Shown piece by piece: positions 1,855 to 60,948 of a stretch of DNA of 64,000 nt (positions are counted from its first letter, which is position 1; every line of letters begins with the position of its first letter). The notes below the pieces were generated by a model that was given only the letters and a program-made list of their open reading frames with translations, made no database searches and was not told where the DNA came from. The position numbers were made by a program, and so were the translations under genes. The stretch is taken from the NCBI RefSeq assembly GCF_053078305.1, contig NZ_CP166879.1, one strand, 5' to 3'.

Positions 1855-3045
1855 ATGTTTGAGAACATTACCGCCGCTCCTGCCGACCCGATTCTGGGCC
1901 TGGCCGATCTGTTTCGTGCCGATGAACGTCCCGGCAAAATTAACCTCGGGATTGGTGTCTATAAAGATGAGACGGGCAAAACCCCGGTACTGACCAGCGT
2001 GAAAAAGGCTGAACAGTATCTGCTCGAAAATGAAACCACCAAAAATTACCTCGGCATTGACGGCATCCCTGAATTTGGTCGCTGCACTCAGGAACTGCTG
2101 TTTGGTAAAGGTAGCGCCCTGATCAATGACAAACGTGCTCGCACGGCACAGACTCCGGGTGGCACTGGCGCACTACGCGTGGCTGCCGACTTCCTGGCAA
2201 AAAATACCAGCGTTAAGCGTGTGTGGGTGAGCAACCCAAGCTGGCCGAACCATAAGAGCGTCTTTAACTCTGCAGGTCTGGAAGTTCGTGAATACGCTTA
2301 TTATGATGCGGAAAATCACACCCTTGACTTCGATGCACTGATTAACAGCCTGAACGAAGCTCAGGCTGGCGACGTAGTGCTGTTCCATGGCTGCTGCCAT
2401 AACCCAACCGGTATCGACCCTACGCTGGAACAATGGCAGACACTGGCACAACTCTCCGTTGAGAAAGGCTGGTTACCGCTGTTTGACTTCGCTTACCAGG
2501 GTTTTGCCCGTGGTCTGGAAGAAGATGCTGAAGGACTGCGCGCTTTCGCGGCTATGCATAAAGAGCTGATTGTTGCCAGTTCCTACTCTAAAAACTTTGG
2601 CCTGTACAACGAGCGTGTTGGCGCTTGTACTCTGGTTGCTGCCGACAGTGAAACCGTTGATCGCGCATTCAGCCAAATGAAAGCGGCGATTCGCGCTAAC
2701 TACTCTAACCCTCCAGCACACGGCGCTTCTGTTGTTGCCACCATCCTGAGCAACGATGCATTACGTGCGATTTGGGAACAAGAGCTGACTGATATGCGCC
2801 AGCGTATTCAGCGTATGCGTCAGTTGTTCGTCAATACGCTGCAGGAAAAAGGGGCAAACCGCGACTTCAGCTTTATCATCAAACAGAACGGCATGTTCTC
2901 CTTCAGTGGTCTGACAAAAGAACAAGTGTTGCGTCTGCGCGAAGAGTTTGGCGTATATGCTGTTGCTTCTGGTCGCGTAAATGTGGCAGGGATGACACCA
3001 GATAACATGGCTCCGCTGTGCGAAGCGATTGTGGCAGTGCTGTAA
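1855..3045 (+). CDS. aspC: Aspartate aminotransferase
   Basis: 396-aa ORF matching remembered AspC ([20 protein letters not shown]...). Confidence 0.97.
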
Positions 3046-3051
3046 GCGTTA

Positions 3052-3088
3052 AAAACAATGAAGCCCGCTGAAAAGCGGGCTTTTTTAT
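3052..3088. terminator. Bidirectional intrinsic terminator between convergent aspC and gloC
   Basis: AAGCCCGC-tgaaaa-GCGGGCTT hairpin flanked by an A-run and a T-run. Confidence 0.7.
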
Positions 3089-3769: not shown

Positions 3770-4318
3770 CTACCAGTGCCGTGCTGGCCCGGTATCAATA
3801 TGCACAAAGTTACTACGTGGGTAATATCCTACACCACCTGCGCGCATAGATAACGCGGCTTTGCGAATATTGCTTAACGCGATACCTTCAATATGGAAAT
3901 CCATCGCCTGGCCTTTAGTGTGATAGCTTTTCTTCGCTACTCCACGGCTGCGGGCGCGTAGTTCATTGTTGGTATCAATGGAACGATAACCGGAAATGAG
4001 TTGCACCGGTTTGCGGGTGCCTAATAACCCTTGCAGGCGATACAACTGGTCGAATAATCCTGGGTCGATGGACTTTATTTTGTTCGCGCGGTAATCGCGG
4101 AAAAAATGGTTAAGTTTTGCCAATTCTTCCTGAATATAGCCTCTGCCATCGAAAAACTCCGCTTTGATTGACTCTCCGGTATGAAGATTATTGAGTGTCA
4201 AAATGCGCGGGCGTGGGGTAGAGAGTGTTGCAAACGCAGGGGTCGGCAGGATGGCGGCACCGAGTGCAACGCCACCAAGCGCCAGCAATTTGCGGCGATT
4301 AGCGTCGAATTTGTCCAT
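3770..4318 (-). CDS. mepK: Peptidoglycan L,D-endopeptidase MepK (YcbK), Tat-exported
   Basis: 182 aa from MDKFDANRRKLLALGG (twin-arginine signal); the ORF-track start 3 codons upstream is rejected. Confidence 0.9.
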   Translation of the reverse strand: MDKFDANRRKLLALGGVALGAAILPTPAFATLSTPRPRILTLNNLHTGESIKAEFFDGRGYIQEELAKLNHFFRDYRANKIKSIDPGLFDQLYRLQGLLGTRKPVQLISGYRSIDTNNELRARSRGVAKKSYHTKGQAMDFHIEGIALSNIRKAALSMRAGGVGYYPRSNFVHIDTGPARHW

Positions 4319-45263: not shown

Positions 45264-46256
45264 CTAATCGATGGACAGTTTATGGACACTTTCAGCCAGC
45301 GGATTAAAGCTGATTGCATCCTGTAAAAAGTCCGGCGAAAAATGCGCATACGTCATCGTTTGTTGAATCGTGGCATGGCCCAGGATTCGTTGTAGCGTAA
45401 CGATATTTCCGCCATTCATCATGAAATGTGTAGCGAATGTATGACGCATGACATGGGTGGCCTGCCCTTTCGGTAAGTCCGGCTTCACCTCCTGAAGGAT
45501 CTCCCGAAATCTGAGGTAATCAGCCTGGTACAACAATCCGGTTCTGCGGGTTTTAATTAACGCAAGTACCGCATCAGAAACGGGAACGGCGCGAGATTTT
45601 CCGTTCTTGGTGTTAAAGAACATCACGCGGTTACCTACAATATGTTCCCCACGTAAACCAGCTGCTTCACCCCACCTTGCCCCCGTGGAAAGACACAGAA
45701 TGGCAACACGCCGCGCATCTCCATCGAGTCGTTCAAGCAGTCGTTCAATCTCCTCATCTGAAAGAAAGGCCATCTCTGTGTTCCTGACTTTCAGCTTACG
45801 TATTCCCCGAACCGGGTTTTCGTTATGGAACACCTCACCCTCAATCAGCGAGCTGAACATTGCAGACAAGGCACACAAATCGCGGTTAATGCTGGAAGGC
45901 ATTAACCCGGCCTGTAATTTGTCGGACCGGTACCCGAGCATAAATTTTCGCGTCATCTGACTGGCACGAGGATCACCCATCTCACGGTTTATCTTTTCCA
46001 GTCTGACCCTGTAGGTATCCCCGTAATCCTGGTTACGACCATCAAGCAACCACCAGGCCTCTATCAGTTCGGATAACCGACGCTGATCTGCTGGCTTAGC
46101 CTGCCATGGCTTATCATGAAAATTCTGCAAAACATACCTTTCAAACTCCTGCGCCTTTGACTTCAGGGTAAAAATCTTACGAATCCGCTTTCCTTCCGTC
46201 CCTTGTGGCCTTACATCAACCTTATAACGTCCGTCTTTGAGTTGCTTAATCGACAT
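45264..46256 (-). CDS. int: P2-type tyrosine integrase
   Basis: 330 aa from MSIKQLKDGRYKVDVRP; strong similarity to remembered P2 Int (LSTGARWGEAA, HxxRHTFATHF, ILGHATIQQTMTYAHF); ATG with GGAGGGG Shine-Dalgarno. Confidence 0.9.
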   Translation of the reverse strand: MSIKQLKDGRYKVDVRPQGTEGKRIRKIFTLKSKAQEFERYVLQNFHDKPWQAKPADQRRLSELIEAWWLLDGRNQDYGDTYRVRLEKINREMGDPRASQMTRKFMLGYRSDKLQAGLMPSSINRDLCALSAMFSSLIEGEVFHNENPVRGIRKLKVRNTEMAFLSDEEIERLLERLDGDARRVAILCLSTGARWGEAAGLRGEHIVGNRVMFFNTKNGKSRAVPVSDAVLALIKTRRTGLLYQADYLRFREILQEVKPDLPKGQATHVMRHTFATHFMMNGGNIVTLQRILGHATIQQTMTYAHFSPDFLQDAISFNPLAESVHKLSID

Positions 46257-46325
46257 GATTAGCCCCTCCAACGGATAAATTAACCAAACACTCCCTGCGG
46301 GATGAAACCCGCTCGATGTGTAACG

Positions 46326-49595: not shown

Positions 49596-50150
49596 ATGAG
49601 ACTTACACCAATGGGAATACCGGGCAAAGCCCCGGCACATGTGAAGGCGTGGACACAGCAGGAAGATCGGTTACTCATCTCGCTTTATCAGGAACACAAC
49701 ACACATCAGATGGCTGAACGAATTCAGCGAACCCGTAAAGCAGTTATGCACCGGATTCGTTTTTTACGTAATCGTGGGCTGATTGGCCGCAAGAGAAAAG
49801 CACCACTGAGTACAGAAGCCATAGCCTTTCTTATTAAAAACCGTCATGTAAAAACCGCACAGGAAATGGCTCTGGAAGTGGGATGTAGTGAGTGCACAGT
49901 GAGGTACACACTGCGTAAACGGGGTTACAACCTGAAAAAATGCGGTGAGAACCACCATTGCGCCAGATACAGCGATCATCTGGTTGAGCTGGTCACGGAG
50001 CTACGCGACATACACAACATGACGTTCTGCATGATCGCTGAACACATCAACAGCACGATACAGATGCACATTAACGACGATGCGGCGTTTCATCTCTACC
50101 ACCGCCGCACAGCGGCTGACGCCGCGCTCTGTGAACTGTTACCGGGCTGA
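49596..50150 (+). CDS. Putative DNA-binding early protein with two HTH-like segments
   Basis: 184-aa ORF with GGAGG Shine-Dalgarno; two helix-turn-helix-like stretches judged by eye; no family assigned. Confidence 0.5.
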   Translation: MRLTPMGIPGKAPAHVKAWTQQEDRLLISLYQEHNTHQMAERIQRTRKAVMHRIRFLRNRGLIGRKRKAPLSTEAIAFLIKNRHVKTAQEMALEVGCSECTVRYTLRKRGYNLKKCGENHHCARYSDHLVELVTELRDIHNMTFCMIAEHINSTIQMHINDDAAFHLYHRRTAADAALCELLPG

Positions 50151-54154: not shown

Positions 54155-54325
54155 ATGAACAGCACCAGGAGGATCAGCGACAGAGAGCTTACGAAAATGA
54201 TTGAGTCGGCACAGCAGCTGCTTTCACGACAAAACCCGGTCGTGGAAGAAACATGGTGGGAGAATTTACTGGCAGCACTGACCGAACTCCGGGAACGCCG
54301 GAACAACGAAGGAGCCGCCAAATGA
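54155..54325 (+). CDS. Hypothetical small helical protein
   Basis: 56 aa from MNSTRRISDRELTKM with AAGGAG Shine-Dalgarno; the ORF-track start at 54116 lacks one. Confidence 0.45.
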   Translation: MNSTRRISDRELTKMIESAQQLLSRQNPVVEETWWENLLAALTELRERRNNEGAAK

Positions 54326-54648
54326 AGACCCCAGGAATGACCGGAAAGGAAATCATTTTACGCTACCTGGAAACGCACACACGTTTCAGCGCCCCAGAAC
54401 TGGTAGAAAAACTGGGCGTGAAAAGAACCGTCATTAATCAGGCCGCCGGGAAAATGGTACGGGAAGGCCTGCTGGTTGTGGATGGATACACGGACAAGAT
54501 AACGCATTACCGGAAGCCAACGGAAAAGGAACGACAGGAACTGGCGCAACGGGCTGAACGGCAGCAGGAAAAATCAGTCATCGAAGCCTGCAAGCGCAGC
54601 GAAATCATGAAGCGAATTCTGTTTATCTACGGCGCTGCATTCCGTTAA
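54322..54648 (+). CDS. Putative winged-helix DNA-binding protein
   Basis: 108 aa MKTPGMTGKEIILRYLETHTRFSAPELVEKLGVKRTVINQAAGKMVREGLLV...; ATGA overlap with the upstream gene; AAGGAG Shine-Dalgarno. Confidence 0.5.
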   Translation: MKTPGMTGKEIILRYLETHTRFSAPELVEKLGVKRTVINQAAGKMVREGLLVVDGYTDKITHYRKPTEKERQELAQRAERQQEKSVIEACKRSEIMKRILFIYGAAFR

Positions 54649-54661
54649 AGGAGCTGGTGAG

Positions 54662-54688
54662 TCGGGGCAAAAATTCTTTTTGCCCCGG
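54662..54688. terminator. Bidirectional terminator between the accessory cassette and the ogr-like gene
   Basis: Perfect palindrome CGGGGCAAAAA-ttc-TTTTTGCCCCG. Confidence 0.7.
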
Positions 54689-54713: not shown

Positions 54714-54977
54714 TCAGGAACGCCGCGACAGTAGTTCAAGCGCATACCGGCGATCTTCCGGGCGCATGGCATCAACAAGAAACTTCACCATATTGCGACC
54801 GGAGCGGGCGCCGGGGCTGAGGGTATGGGAAAAGGTCATCGTACAGACGAAGGTGTGCCCGCATTCGACATCACTGCATGCACAGTACAGATCCGCAAGT
54901 TCAGGGGTTTTCCAGTCTGTCTTCCGGATGACAGCAGGTGCGCCACAGTCAGGACACCGGGCTTTAAAAATCCGCAT
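54714..54977 (-). CDS. Ogr/Delta-family zinc-finger late-gene transcription activator
   Basis: 87 aa from MRIFKARCPDCG...YCACSDVECGHTF, matching the remembered Ogr pattern CPxC...YxCxNxxCxxTF; GGGAGG Shine-Dalgarno. Confidence 0.75.
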   Translation of the reverse strand: MRIFKARCPDCGAPAVIRKTDWKTPELADLYCACSDVECGHTFVCTMTFSHTLSPGARSGRNMVKFLVDAMRPEDRRYALELLSRRS

Positions 54978-55014: not shown

Positions 55015-56067
55015 TTACCCGACCGGCACCACTTTTTCTTCCGCCACATGCCCGGCTTCCACATCAAAACGAAGATAAAGGTGTTCCGGTATATCGGGAT
55101 CGCTGTTCACGGCGTTCATGATTTTACGCTGAAGCGGTATCACCTCATCCTTGCGGTACGTTTCACGCGTCGTTTCCGGGTTAGGGATGGTGGCCCCGTT
55201 CGTGGGGATGATCCCCGCAAGACCGGCAGGAAAGCGGTGTGCCGTAAACACATCCTGGGCGCTGATCCCCTTGATGTTTGAAAATTCATCCTTGGCGCTC
55301 ACCTCACCAATCGGAATAATTTTCACCCCATCCGGCGAACCTTTGGGGATGTTGATGTACAGATTGCGGAAATTTCCCAGCCCCTTAGACTCCGCCACCT
55401 TCTCGCGGATCTCATCCTCCATCTCCGTGGTGATCCCAGGGTCGTTCGTATACAGCAAAAAGCCCATATGCGCCCCGTTGTTGTAGTAACGGCGACGAAA
55501 AAGGCTGGCCTCGCTGTTCAGCAGCGCCGAGTGAATGCCACCGATATAATCCGGCAGCCCGTAAATTTGCTGACGCGGATCATACATCCGCAGAAAGATA
55601 ATATCTTCCGGCGTATAGACCAGCGCGGGACCTTCCTGAAGCACCACGAACTCACCGGTTTTGCGGCGCCGGAGATACAGCGACGGAAGCGGCTCAAGTG
55701 CCACGACGTCGCCGAATACGTTACGCACCTTGAGCAGGGCGAGATCGCCGAACAACAGGTAGTCAAATACCGCCTGTTCCATCTGGTCCGTTGTGAGGCC
55801 ACCACCGGTATAGCCCCCCGCCACCATGTTACGGCGGGCATACAGCACCCCACCGTGCTGGGCGTTAAGGTTCGGGAGCTGCGCCAGTGCCAGGCGGTTA
55901 ATCGGCAGCTGCCAGTGGTTGTGTTCGTTGTCATACCAGATGTTATGGTAGTCCGTGCCGGTGGTCAGCACCGGTTCCGGCTGACCAAACGTGATTGTGC
56001 TGCCACGTGCGGGCGTGAATGCTTTTTTCGTCACGCGTGACGTTTTGTTTCTGCGTTTCTTGCTCAT
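55015..56067 (-). CDS. Portal protein (P2 gpQ-like)
   Basis: 350 aa from MSKKRRNK, ATGA-coupled to the terminase stop; size and position as P2 Q. Confidence 0.75.
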   Translation of the reverse strand: MSKKRRNKTSRVTKKAFTPARGSTITFGQPEPVLTTGTDYHNIWYDNEHNHWQLPINRLALAQLPNLNAQHGGVLYARRNMVAGGYTGGGLTTDQMEQAVFDYLLFGDLALLKVRNVFGDVVALEPLPSLYLRRRKTGEFVVLQEGPALVYTPEDIIFLRMYDPRQQIYGLPDYIGGIHSALLNSEASLFRRRYYNNGAHMGFLLYTNDPGITTEMEDEIREKVAESKGLGNFRNLYINIPKGSPDGVKIIPIGEVSAKDEFSNIKGISAQDVFTAHRFPAGLAGIIPTNGATIPNPETTRETYRKDEVIPLQRKIMNAVNSDPDIPEHLYLRFDVEAGHVAEEKVVPVG

Positions 56068-57890
56068 GCGGCTTTCCCGAAGGCCCATGTGGACGGGCGT
56101 TCATAGTCATAATCTACAGGCTCATTAATCACGGCGTGCGAAATGGCAAAAAACACATCCGCATGCCCCGTAACATCCGACCGTTCCGCCACGAACGTCA
56201 GCGCGTTACCGCTTTTTGTGGTGGTGCGGCGTATGGACATGAACGACGCGGGGATCTCCGTGCGTTCACGGCTGGCCTCATCAATGGCGTCTTTCGCCCA
56301 CTCGATACGCTTATGGGCCACCACGTCTATCATTTTCATCACCAGGCGGTTTTTGCTCTCCACGCTGTAAAGAATGGCGTTAGCCTCACGTGGCGCAAAG
56401 CGACTGACGATATCAAACACCCCTTTCCCGATACCGGTGATATCTATGCCGATATAGGTAATGTTAAAGCGCTGCATCAGTTCGCGGATCTGATCGGCCT
56501 GCCAGGTGAAGTTAAATCCCTGCCACTGCCAGACGGCGAGTACACGGAACCGCTCGCCCTCATGGACAGGCGGAGCCACAATCACAAACGTGGAATTATC
56601 CCCGGACCTTGACGGGTCAAAGCCCGCCCATACCTCACGATTGCCGAACGGACGTGCCGCCGTGGGATCGTAGTCACCCCACGTCTCCATCTCCACCTCG
56701 CACCTGACCAGTTCGGAGAACTTAAATACCGCATCCTTGCTGTCAACAAACTCGCAGCCGTACAGCATCGCATAGGTGGTCGGGTTGTAGCGGTTCCTGA
56801 TACGTTCAATATCAACCCGTGCAGACAGGCCACCCGCCACCGCCTCTTCCAGCCGGATAATGTAGCGCCAGATCCCGTCAGGGCATTCACAGCCCACACG
56901 CATCGCGCTTTCTTTCGGAAACTCAACCGCACGACGCGCCGGGTCATCCCCGCGCCAGTCGTCACCATTCCAGACCAGATAAGCCTGGTGGGTTTTGGCG
57001 CTGGGTGTGGAAAAATACGTCGTGCGGTATTTGTCGTGGGTCGCCATTGCCGAGGCCACTTCATGCAGTCGCGTGAATTTTGGGATCCAGAACACCTCAT
57101 CGCCGTAAAGGTGGCCGTTAAATCCCTGGGCGGTGCTGACATTGGTGGACAGGAAGCGCAGCATTGCACCATTGCTCAGACGGATATGCTTACCCGTGAG
57201 CGTGATCCCAAACTGCAGGGCGAAGTTAATAATATATTCACGAAAGATTTCCGCCTGTACCCGTGACGCAGAAAAGAAAATCTGGTTATCACCGGTCACC
57301 ACCGCATCTTCGAACGCTTCCCATGCAAAATACCAGGTCATGCCGATCTGGCGGCTCTTGAGGATGAAACGGCGCTCACGGTGCCGGTTCTCGCGGCAGT
57401 GCAGCTGGTAGGCATAAAGATTTTTACGCGCCCATTCATCCAGCATTTCAGCAGTCAGTCCGGAAACGTCGTTTTTCCGGTAGCGCCGCTTTTTCCCTTC
57501 TCCCCCGCCGCAGGTCCCCGCAGCCGCGCCGTCCTCATACCCTGCCGGACGCAGGGCGGCAATTTCCGCCATCCTTTCAGCGTGTTTGTTTTTCTGGGCG
57601 ATGATCTTCACGTGCTGCGCGATAAGTTCACGCAGTTCGGCAAGTTCACACTCTGTCTTGCCCTCCCGTCCGGTCAGCACATCAATACGCCGGGCGATCA
57701 CGTCCTCAACGGATTCAGCGGGCAGCAGGGCGGCCCACTGCCCCACATCACACCAGTGGTAAACCGTGCGCGGCGGAATACCGAGTTCCGCCGCAATATC
57801 GCGGGGGTGCCACCGCTTCAGGTAAAGCGATCGCGCCGCCTCTTTGATTTCGTCAGAATATTTAGCCATGCGCCCATTATGGCGGCGCAT
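56064..57890 (-). CDS. Terminase large (ATPase) subunit (P2 gpP-like)
   Basis: 608-aa ORF directly upstream of the portal gene, divergent from the scaffold/capsid genes as in P2; exact start uncertain. Confidence 0.8.
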   Translation of the reverse strand: MRRHNGRMAKYSDEIKEAARSLYLKRWHPRDIAAELGIPPRTVYHWCDVGQWAALLPAESVEDVIARRIDVLTGREGKTECELAELRELIAQHVKIIAQKNKHAERMAEIAALRPAGYEDGAAAGTCGGGEGKKRRYRKNDVSGLTAEMLDEWARKNLYAYQLHCRENRHRERRFILKSRQIGMTWYFAWEAFEDAVVTGDNQIFFSASRVQAEIFREYIINFALQFGITLTGKHIRLSNGAMLRFLSTNVSTAQGFNGHLYGDEVFWIPKFTRLHEVASAMATHDKYRTTYFSTPSAKTHQAYLVWNGDDWRGDDPARRAVEFPKESAMRVGCECPDGIWRYIIRLEEAVAGGLSARVDIERIRNRYNPTTYAMLYGCEFVDSKDAVFKFSELVRCEVEMETWGDYDPTAARPFGNREVWAGFDPSRSGDNSTFVIVAPPVHEGERFRVLAVWQWQGFNFTWQADQIRELMQRFNITYIGIDITGIGKGVFDIVSRFAPREANAILYSVESKNRLVMKMIDVVAHKRIEWAKDAIDEASRERTEIPASFMSIRRTTTKSGNALTFVAERSDVTGHADVFFAISHAVINEPVDYDYERPSTWAFGKAA

Positions 57891-58035
57891 CCGGCCCGCA
57901 TTCAGGCAGAAAATTTCGGCTGTGTTCGGCTATCCCGCGTTATCCGAAGACAGCCGAATTCAGCCAGTAGCCCCCCGCTGTAAAAATCCCGACACTCACC
58001 GGAGTTCTTCAGATTTTCACGTAAAAGAGGCCACG

Positions 58036-59085
58036 ATGCCGCAGCCAACGTTGATGACCGACTGGATATGTATCGCCACATCAGGACCGACCGTTGACGG
58101 CCGCGAAATTGATCCGCAGTGGCTGACTGATGCCGCTGAAACCTATTCCCGCAACACCTACACGGCGATGCTGTGGCCCTGGCATGAGGAAGAAATCGGA
58201 CACCGCCAGTACACCAGTAATCTGGGTGAAGTGGACTCACTGAAAGCGGAAACCGGCGAGGACGGTAAAACCCGCCTCTACGCACGGCTGGTCCCTAACC
58301 AGTACCTGATTGAAGCCAACAGACTGGGGCAGAAGCTGTTCACATCCGCCGAGATAGTGGAGAACTTCGCCCGGAGCGGACGCGACTATCTCCTGGGCGT
58401 GGCGGTGACGGATATCCCCGCCAGTCTGGGGACGGAAAAAATCCGCTTCACCCTGAACAACGAGGAATACACGGCACAGCGGGCGAACTGCCAGACGTTC
58501 ACGCTGGGCAGCCTGTCACCGGACACCTCCCCGCCCCCCCGTAAACCTGAATCATTCCTGAAACGCCTGTTCAGCGCAGGACAGACCGACAACACCGACA
58601 CCAGTAAGCCTGATACAGGCGAGGACGCAAAAATGGACGAAATTAAAGCACTGCTTGAAAAGCTGATCACCCTGGTGGAAGGCGGCAGCGCCGCTGCCGC
58701 TGGCGAGGGCACAGCAGACACACCGGAAGAAGCAAAAGCCGAAGTCGCGGAAATCGCCGCCGAAATCGCCGATGCCGCCGCAGAGGTGGCAGAACTGGCA
58801 GAAGAAGTGGAAGCCGCCCCGGAAGATGAGGTTAAGGCTGAAGCCTTCAGCGCCGCGAAAGCGAAGCTGGAAGACGCGATTAAAGCGTTCAGTGCCATCA
58901 CACCGGAAAAAGGCGAACGTTACCGCCGCTTTGCCGCCCGTCGCCGGGACGACACCGACAAAGAAGAAATCAAAGCTATTGCCGAAAAACTTAACGACCT
59001 GACCACGAAGCTGTCAGCAACCGGCATCACGCCACGACCGGCTGGCACACCGGCAGAAAGCGAAAAACCGTTTGACTTTGTTTAA
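58036..59085 (+). CDS. Capsid scaffolding protein (P2 gpO-like)
   Basis: 349 aa from MPQPTLMTDW with AAGAGG Shine-Dalgarno; LLGVAVTDIPASLGTE resembles P2 gpO LVGLAVTDDPASLGTE; Ala/Glu-rich helical C-terminal half. Confidence 0.75.
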   Translation: MPQPTLMTDWICIATSGPTVDGREIDPQWLTDAAETYSRNTYTAMLWPWHEEEIGHRQYTSNLGEVDSLKAETGEDGKTRLYARLVPNQYLIEANRLGQKLFTSAEIVENFARSGRDYLLGVAVTDIPASLGTEKIRFTLNNEEYTAQRANCQTFTLGSLSPDTSPPPRKPESFLKRLFSAGQTDNTDTSKPDTGEDAKMDEIKALLEKLITLVEGGSAAAAGEGTADTPEEAKAEVAEIAAEIADAAAEVAELAEEVEAAPEDEVKAEAFSAAKAKLEDAIKAFSAITPEKGERYRRFAARRRDDTDKEEIKAIAEKLNDLTTKLSATGITPRPAGTPAESEKPFDFV

Positions 59086-60841: not shown

Positions 60842-60948
60842 ACGACTACCCGCAGGGCCGGGCGGGCGCGGGAGGAGGCATCAGTGACGGAAACTGTATG
60901 GCCGTGGAATCCCGGACAGCCCGCCTTTTTATTCATATGAGGCACGTC

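Follow-up and report, generated by a model that had tools for sequence, protein, structure and literature searches.

In a P2-family prophage of E. coli, the terminase and scaffold genes diverge from a gap that carries a 44-bp dyad. This dyad is probably a bidirectional late-promoter activator site bound by the Ogr-like protein of the prophage, and we are more confident still of the broader claim that it is a regulatory site to which some protein binds. The strongest argument for an activator site that depends on the face of the helix and would serve both promoters is that the dyad centre is spaced symmetrically from two predicted -10 hexamers, at distances that differ in ~10-bp steps among relatives. 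An earlier note on this DNA had singled out a 9-bp inverted repeat containing TGT and ACA elements as a candidate late-promoter activator site; our analysis bears out the kind of site and its position, but neither the weight given to the two triplets nor the idea of an Ogr box with stretched spacing. By comparing sequences we infer which protein binds the dyad, where transcription starts, that binding leads to activation and not to another effect, and what role the outer half-sites play.

The dyad and its prophage setting

The window, by which we mean the whole 64-kb stretch that was analysed, is a segment of an E. coli chromosome with a P2-family prophage that begins with an integrase gene (45264-46271) and extends past the right end of the window. 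Over the 1.2 kb compared (57400-58600), the sequence is 100% identical to that of E. coli 04-00955, where the prophage lies between dmsA and serS, and the prophage is present in 11 of 5,426 complete E. coli genomes. Its late genes form two divergent blocks only, both of which flank the single dyad: to the right, the scaffold, capsid, small terminase and head completion genes and all tail and lysis genes run in one direction on the plus strand, and the leftward genes are given in Table 1. The gpP-like and gpO-like genes thus enclose the element in a P2-type prophage that encodes an Ogr/Delta protein, in agreement with the divergent P/O setting that had been proposed. The open reading frame for this protein scores 57.4 bits against PF04606 (Ogr_Delta; cutoff 26.3), has a motif of the type CX2CX22CX4C and is named 'ogr/Delta-like zinc finger family protein' in RefSeq. 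The prophage also encodes C-like, Cox-like and MarR-like regulators.

The start of the terminase gene has to be moved from the position implied by the earlier note (57890), as the RefSeq annotation and all homologues agree on the ATG at 57869 (MAKYSDE...), which is most likely the true start. Together with the scaffold start at 58036 this defines an intergenic region of 166 bp (57870-58035). An in-frame ATG lies at 57888-57890, 21 nt upstream of the accepted start, and a mechanically called open reading frame that includes it would encode 608 aa; this ATG is probably unused, since relatives do not conserve it and transcription is predicted to start downstream of it.

Several further features of the prophage deserve mention in their own right. 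The ogr-like gene directly follows the portal gene (gene order P-Q-ogr), while P2 and 186 have it after gene D, at the late region's far end. Where the ogr homologue of K139 lies has been noted before (PMC8537503), and the K139 record annotates a putative promoter of its own, P13, for that gene. Between the ogr-like gene and the convergent MarR-like gene (~54322-54648, plus strand; replaced by a methyltransferase gene in SI7) lies a perfect hairpin, GGGGCAAAAA-TTC-TTTTTGCCCC (54664-54687), which looks like a bidirectional intrinsic terminator. Moreover, the gap between the small terminase and head completion genes (60842-60948) is GC-rich and unusually conserved with SI7 (AACGACT.CCGCA..CCGGG.CGGGCGCGGG.GGAGGCATCA), has TCAGTGACGG in common with the equivalent M-L gap of P2, and ends with GCCCGCC followed by TTTTTATT.

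Table 1. Coordinates of the dyad, its half-sites, the predicted promoter elements and the flanking genes
Feature	Position in window	Strand	Remarks
Ogr/Delta-like zinc-finger gene	54714-54977	-	87 aa; CPDC-X22-CSDVEC; PF04606
Portal gene, gpQ-like	55015-56088	-	
Large terminase subunit gene, gpP-like	56064-57869	-	N-terminal helix-turn-helix (PF06056, HTH_23)
Predicted leftward transcription start	57869	-	7 nt after CATAAT (P2 spacing); the A of the terminase ATG
Predicted -10 of leftward (terminase/portal/ogr) late promoter	57876-57881	-	CATAAT; by conservation
Full dyad	57915-57958	none	44 bp; 18-nt arms, 8-nt centre; symmetry centre 57936.5
Outer-left half-site	57915-57922	+	TTCGGCTG; 10 bp upstream of inner-left half-site
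Inner-left half-site	57925-57932	+	TTCGGCTA; conserved core
Inner-right half-site	57941-57948	-	TATCCGAA (minus strand TTCGGATA); conserved core
Outer-right half-site	57951-57958	-	CAGCCGAA (minus strand TTCGGCTG); 10 bp outside inner-right half-site
Predicted -10 of rightward (scaffold and following genes) late promoter	57991-57996	+	GACACT; by conservation
Predicted rightward transcription start	58003	+	7 nt after GACACT (P2 spacing); 33-nt leader to scaffold ATG
Capsid scaffold gene, GPO family, gpO-like	58036-59085	+	

The inverted repeat from which the analysis set out is exact: its arms, TTCGGCTGT (57915-57923) and ACAGCCGAA (57950-57958), are separated by a spacer of exactly 26 nt, and the pattern TTCGGCTGT-N26-ACAGCCGAA has a single occurrence in the window and did not arise in 100 shuffles. 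Taken alone, a perfect inverted repeat of 9 nt whose arms lie no more than 40 nt apart is not rare, and the window holds 47 of them against a local-shuffle mean of 10.4. The full element (TTCGGCTGTGTTCGGCTATCCCGCGTTATCCGAAGACAGCCGAA, 57915-57958), whose arms (57915-57932 and 57941-57958) are complementary at 16 of 18 positions, is by contrast the sole inverted repeat of such quality in the 64-kb window, and none was found in 20 shuffles. Each arm is itself an imperfect direct repeat, and the whole element is made up of four copies of TTCGG(C/A)T(G/A), that is TTCGGYTR, which start on the plus strand at 57915 and 57925 and end on the minus strand at 57948 and 57958, with neighbours on the same side placed 10 bp apart. 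Of these, the inner pair, TTCGG-N14-CCGAA (TTCGGCTA-N8-TATCCGAA, 57925-57948), forms the core that evolution has conserved. The 26-nt spacer is a by-product of the four-half-site layout and not an altered Ogr-box spacing. That the spacing is not that of a canonical box was rightly observed, and the intergenic region holds no TGT-N12-ACA, no TGT-N12-CCA and no one-off variant of these; elsewhere between 45001 and 64000, only two matches to TGT-N12-ACA (canonical or relaxed) are present, at 49640 and 55827, both within open reading frames.

Conservation of the core and of the outer half-sites

Terminase/scaffold intergenic regions of relatives were collected from 34 viral contigs found by a search with the scaffold protein, from three further E. 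coli genomes, from 58 genome contigs, spread over many genera of the Enterobacterales, that an alignment of the Ogr-like protein had picked out, and from the isolated phages SI7, ESSI-2 and K139. They comprise ~55 distinct versions of 142-193 bp, the sequences of which are mostly unalignable between genera. The relatives number 477 in IMG/VR; when viral contigs were scanned again with the alignment of the Ogr-like protein, only close relatives came up, and a megablast search of the region against the phage collection gave no matches; a blastn search for distant relatives found SI7, SW3 and SW5, at 66% identity.

Four blocks persist across this divergence, namely ATTATG, the inner dyad, a weak GC-containing block at the rightward -35 position, and AATACT/GATACT/AATAAT. 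The core GG-YTA...TA-CCGAA (inner dyad TTCGG-N14-CCGAA, with N13 in some) is kept in ~55 distinct P/O regions from E. coli, Salmonella phage SI7, Cronobacter phage ESSI-2, Yersinia, Serratia, Xenorhabdus, Providencia and others as well as Vibrio phage K139, in which the core reads TTCGGATATAACCCCATATCCGAA and a second CCGAA follows 10 bp further. The CCGAA of the inner-right half-site is the best-conserved block, being replaced by TCGAA in a single one of the 55 regions. Searches with the exact pattern TTCGGNTA-N8-TANCCGAA or with a weight matrix of the core give one match per genome or locus, always in the terminase/scaffold gap, and an Ogr/Delta zinc-finger gene lies downstream of the portal gene in every dyad-bearing relative with enough flanking sequence. 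Since neither words, nor the weight matrix, nor an IUPAC pattern found further copies at other late genes in the prophage, in SI7 or in the rest of the window, replication of the motif within a genome is not usable as evidence.

The distribution also has its exceptions. The left inner half-site is degenerate (AGTGG) in the SI7 group; an alternative SI7 register, TCGG-N24-CCGA, was set aside, as the broader data favour the N14 core together with a left auxiliary site. Two dyad registers, 11 bp apart, fit the contigs L033-35. Among distant phages chosen by hand, Aeromonas phage phiO18P has a P/O gap of 91 bp without the dyad, despite an Ogr-like gene (44.6% identical) in the same place, and the 68-bp P/O gap of Burkholderia phage phi52237 (L184, 2619-2686) contains TGTACCCGCGTGACCCACA, of the form TGT-N13-ACA. 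The absence of the dyad from phiO18P and the TGT-N13-ACA-like element of phi52237 suggest that the TTCGG-type operator is a feature of the branch formed by the Enterobacterales phages plus K139.

The same comparison shifts attention from the triplets of the original repeat to the pentamers. The ACA is replaced by GCA in the close E. coli relatives L005, 2013C-3033 and N51, and the TGT is absent from its place in the relatives examined (TAAAAAG in the SI7 group, TTGAA in Xenorhabdus); because the triplets vary while the TTCGG/CCGAA cores are kept, TGT and ACA are incidental. More generally, the bases between the outer and inner half-sites differ from phage to phage: the window has CTGTG, Xenorhabdus TTGAA, Yersinia CTACA and K139 TTCAC. 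Among the close E. coli relatives, L005 carries GGCAGCCGAA and both 2013C-3033 and N51 carry GCAACCGAA in place of the right outer arm ACAGCCGAA, with the left arm unchanged; throughout the E. coli group, none of the four TTCGG/CCGAA pentamers varies, although the bases beside them do.

This bears on whether the outer half-sites matter at all. In 36 of the 55 distinct relatives a TTCGG-like word is found 10 bp outward of the inner-left half-site, and in 15 of the 55, among them K139, Pragia and Xenorhabdus, a CCGAA-like word is found 10 bp outward of the inner-right one; the window holds the most complete four-half-site palindrome of the set. It could be argued that the inner dyad alone is functional and that the outer arms are chance or the neutral by-product of a local 10-bp duplication, as the right outer half-site is absent or degenerate in 40 of the 55 relatives, the SI7 group lacks the right outer copy, and the bases beside the outer CCGAA vary among E. 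coli strains. However, outer words resembling TTCGG or CCGAA are found again and again at exactly 10 bp where the surrounding sequence is unrelated (Xenorhabdus, Yersinia, Pragia, Serratia, K139), and the four pentamer cores withstand change in the E. coli group where their neighbours do not, which makes a purely inner site rather improbable. We consider it probable, on the strength of these alignments, that the outer TTCGG cores are real auxiliary sites, which might increase affinity, bring in a second dimer or act on the nearer promoter.

A palindrome of this length might also act through nucleic-acid structure, either as a DNA cruciform or as an RNA hairpin that serves as terminator, attenuator or stabiliser in read-through transcripts. 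The element does fold very stably as single-stranded DNA (-18.6 kcal/mol, z = -6.4; equally stable shuffles 0/200). Yet no T-run follows the stem, and no Rfam family matches even at a permissive threshold. In the E. coli group no pair has changed on both sides and three pairs are disrupted, and among 28 diverse relatives the fraction paired is 66.1%, no different from the mean of shuffles (66.1%; 277 of 500 as high), and covariation does not exceed that of shuffles (136/500). In addition, the outer arms are non-complementary in the SI7 group, and both predicted transcription starts are placed beyond the dyad, directed outward. Given the lack of covariation, T-run and Rfam match, we conclude that the palindrome reflects conserved half-sites and not base pairing, and a structural role is very unlikely.

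Predicted promoter hexamers and their spacing from the dyad

On the terminase side, nearly all relatives have an unchanged ATTATG, which reads CATAAT on the terminase strand; its distance from the dyad centre is 55-58 bp, or else 47-48 or 67 bp. On the scaffold side, the GACACT of the window aligns with AATACT, GATACT or AATAAT, which lie 57 or 47 bp from the dyad centre in ~53 of the 55 relatives; GACACT is invariant in the E. coli group and may be compared with the GAAACT of P2 pO and 186 pV. In relatives from Xenorhabdus, Erwinia and Enterobacter the terminase ATG lies ~31-37 nt from the leftward hexamer, which is nevertheless still 55-56 bp from the dyad. As the hexamer thus stays with the dyad where the ATG has moved, it is better understood as part of a promoter than as part of a start codon.

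Spacings were measured from the dyad centre to the hexamer centre and are given here as terminase side/scaffold side. They amount to 58/57 bp in both the window and K139, 57/57 bp in the SI7 group and ESSI-2, and 56.5/56.5 bp in the N13 variants, and the shorter class is represented by 48/47 bp (L012, L055) and 47/47 bp (L078, L086). Mixed arrangements occur as well, with 57/47 bp in L076 and L077 and 67/47 bp in L033-35, for which the alternative register gives 56/58 bp; P2 and 186 both have 46/46 bp. Values between these ~10-bp classes are essentially absent. With the P2 spacing between hexamer and start, the site centre is predicted at ~-66.5 / ~-67.5 in the window and at ~-56.5 in the relatives of the 47-bp class.

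No sigma-70 consensus promoter was found in 57700-58200, as would be expected of activator-dependent promoters. The sequence TGTAAAAAT (57979-57987), considered as a rightward extended -10, was rejected: 2013C-3033 and N51 have lost its TG, and the SI7 group does not keep the block; the conserved GACACT/AATACT lies 10 bp downstream of it. A terminator scan reported a weak hairpin on the minus strand at 57988-58003, TCCGGTGAGTGTCGGG followed by the T-run ATTTTTAC, which overlaps the predicted rightward -10 and start and, with 6 pairs of which 3 are G-C, is probably due to chance. In the GenBank record of K139, a putative sigma-70 promoter, P16, sits directly on the TTCGG dyad (L101, 1742-1816), which our analysis suggests to be an operator rather than a promoter.

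The assignment of the leftward -10 has an unusual consequence. Only 6 nt, without a Shine-Dalgarno sequence, separate the end of CATAAT from the terminase ATG, so that the terminase mRNA is predicted to be leaderless in the window, and likewise in SI7, the ESSI-2-like phages and K139 (TATGAT-GCGCTC-ATG); the Xenorhabdus and Erwinia relatives have a terminase leader of ~31-37 nt with an AAGGA Shine-Dalgarno sequence. We count the implied leaderless mRNA against our explanation, as we do the degenerate left inner half-site of SI7, the two registers of L033-35 and the absence of the dyad from phiO18P.

The same spacing informs the question of whether some other protein might use the dyad as its operator while the Ogr-like protein acts elsewhere. 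Candidates would be a late-gene repressor, Cox or C, the terminase through autoregulation by its N-terminal helix-turn-helix (PF06056, HTH_23), or a host factor; this possibility draws on the C-like, Cox-like and MarR-like regulators of the prophage and on a motif that is unlike the defined Ogr consensus. The edges of the dyad, however, lie 33 bp from both -10 hexamers, and steric repression is for that reason unlikely. The symmetric spacing to both hexamers, quantised in 10-bp steps, fits activation that depends on the face of the helix, the Ogr-like gene accompanies the dyad wherever the flank permits a check, and the Ogr or B site of P2 and 186 occupies the equivalent position; in P2, C and Cox operate on the early switch. 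The MarR-like neighbour can be dismissed as the binding protein, since its gene is missing from SI7 and the dyad is present there. On balance, we regard a different binding protein as unlikely.

The proximity of the dyad to the terminase gene, the product of which has a DNA-binding N-terminus, could also point to a packaging or replication signal, such as a cos-type terminase recognition site or an origin element. Against this, cos lies beyond the portal gene in P2 and 186 and ori lies inside gene A, the spacing of the dyad is tied to the promoter hexamers, and no GC-rich sequence resembling cohesive ends is present; a role of this kind is extremely improbable.

Known late-control systems and a proposed mechanism

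The activator-site reading is best judged against P2 and 186. The P2 record gives one activator site (3057-3087) for pO and pP, with mapped starts at 3016 (leftward) and 3127 (rightward), and its TGT-N12-CCA element, centred at 3071.5, is equally distant from the two starts (55.5 bp) and from the centres of the two -10 hexamers (46 bp; TAGCCT, GAAACT). Likewise, the 186 record has one B-protein site (3798-3817) for p12 and pV, with 46/46 geometry. Compared with these late promoters, the element occupies the same symmetric position between the promoters as the single Ogr or B site. The systems share a single dyad between divergent terminase and scaffold operons, equidistant from the -10 hexamers, promoters without a good -35, and a small phage-encoded zinc-finger activator of the PF04606 family (in the window the presumed activator). 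They differ in the element, which is TTCGGYTA-N8-TARCCGAA (24 bp) in the window and TGT-N12-(A/C)CA (18 bp) in P2 and 186, and in its distance from the -10 hexamers, which is 57-58 bp in the window compared with 46 bp; the centre is accordingly placed at a predicted -66.5 and not at -55.5, one helical turn further out, whereas the 47-bp relatives match the P2 spacing. Moreover, the window element has extra phased half-sites that the P2 and 186 sites lack, and while P2 has three sites for four promoters, genomes of the window type have one each, so that a single site per genome provides weaker support than the replicated motif of P2.

Closest to the window are K139, ESSI-2 and SI7, which have the same operator core and P-Q-ogr gene order, with 58/57 geometry in K139; the K139 record lists putative sigma-70 promoters only, the ESSI-2 and SI7 records list none, and no protein-binding feature is annotated in any of them. 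The Delta-dependent promoters of P4 and phiR73 (Psid, PLL) rely on the same activator family, but their consensus is TGT-N12-ACA, unlike the window. Delta is a tandem duplication of the Ogr fold, and P4 late promoters have more than one activator site, which would parallel the multiple half-sites described here. A further analogy, of mechanism only, is offered by class I activation of the CRP type, in which sites lie at -61.5, -71.5 and so on, in steps of whole helical turns. Like CRP sites, the dyads of the window family lie upstream and at positions that differ by whole turns (47, 57 and 67 bp among relatives), but protein family and motif are unrelated. The published Ogr-type consensus is TGT-N12-ACA, and in Smp131 one 18-bp box has been reported for both PP' and PO' (PMC3931495).

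We propose that the dyad would be the upstream activating sequence common to two divergent late promoters, of which the leftward one would transcribe terminase, portal and ogr and the rightward one scaffold, capsid and the remaining late genes. The Ogr/Delta-type protein would bind TTCGGYTR half-sites, with TTCGGCTA-N8-TATCCGAA as the core, and the outer half-sites, which lie a helical turn away from the core on the same DNA face, would be auxiliary. From a site centred ~66 bp upstream of the predicted starts, the activator could then recruit host RNA polymerase to both weak promoters, which have no -35, as P2 Ogr does from -55.5, most likely via the alpha C-terminal domain. If the ogr-like gene is co-transcribed from the leftward promoter, positive feedback would follow. 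The specificity of the Ogr-like protein for the dyad is extrapolated, given that TTCGG/N14 differs from TGT-N12-ACA and that the protein has only 32% identity to P2 Ogr over the zinc finger.

It is quite possible, though we would not yet call it probable, that a large subfamily of Ogr-type phages, with ogr downstream of the portal gene, uses its own and so far undescribed phased TTCGGYTR operator as a bidirectional enhancer acting from ~-66 or ~-56, with one of its promoters giving both a leaderless terminase mRNA and feedback on the activator. This subfamily would range over K139-, ESSI-2- and SI7-type Peduoviridae and many Enterobacterales prophages. The P2-type design of late control is already known, and its general picture would remain unchanged; what would be new is the half-site sequence, the layout with several half-sites and the position one turn further upstream. 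The relatives offer a natural series in which one site lies 47, 57 or 67 bp from the -10 hexamers and carries two, three or four half-sites, with one activator and two divergent promoters, and the element may also be of use as a compact activator-dependent bidirectional promoter for engineering. If confirmed, our findings would provide a recognition sequence and a promoter architecture for a widespread branch of the Ogr/Delta family, of which only the TGT-N12-ACA type is documented, and would allow late promoters to be annotated in many prophages of Enterobacterales and Vibrio, including K139 of V. cholerae.
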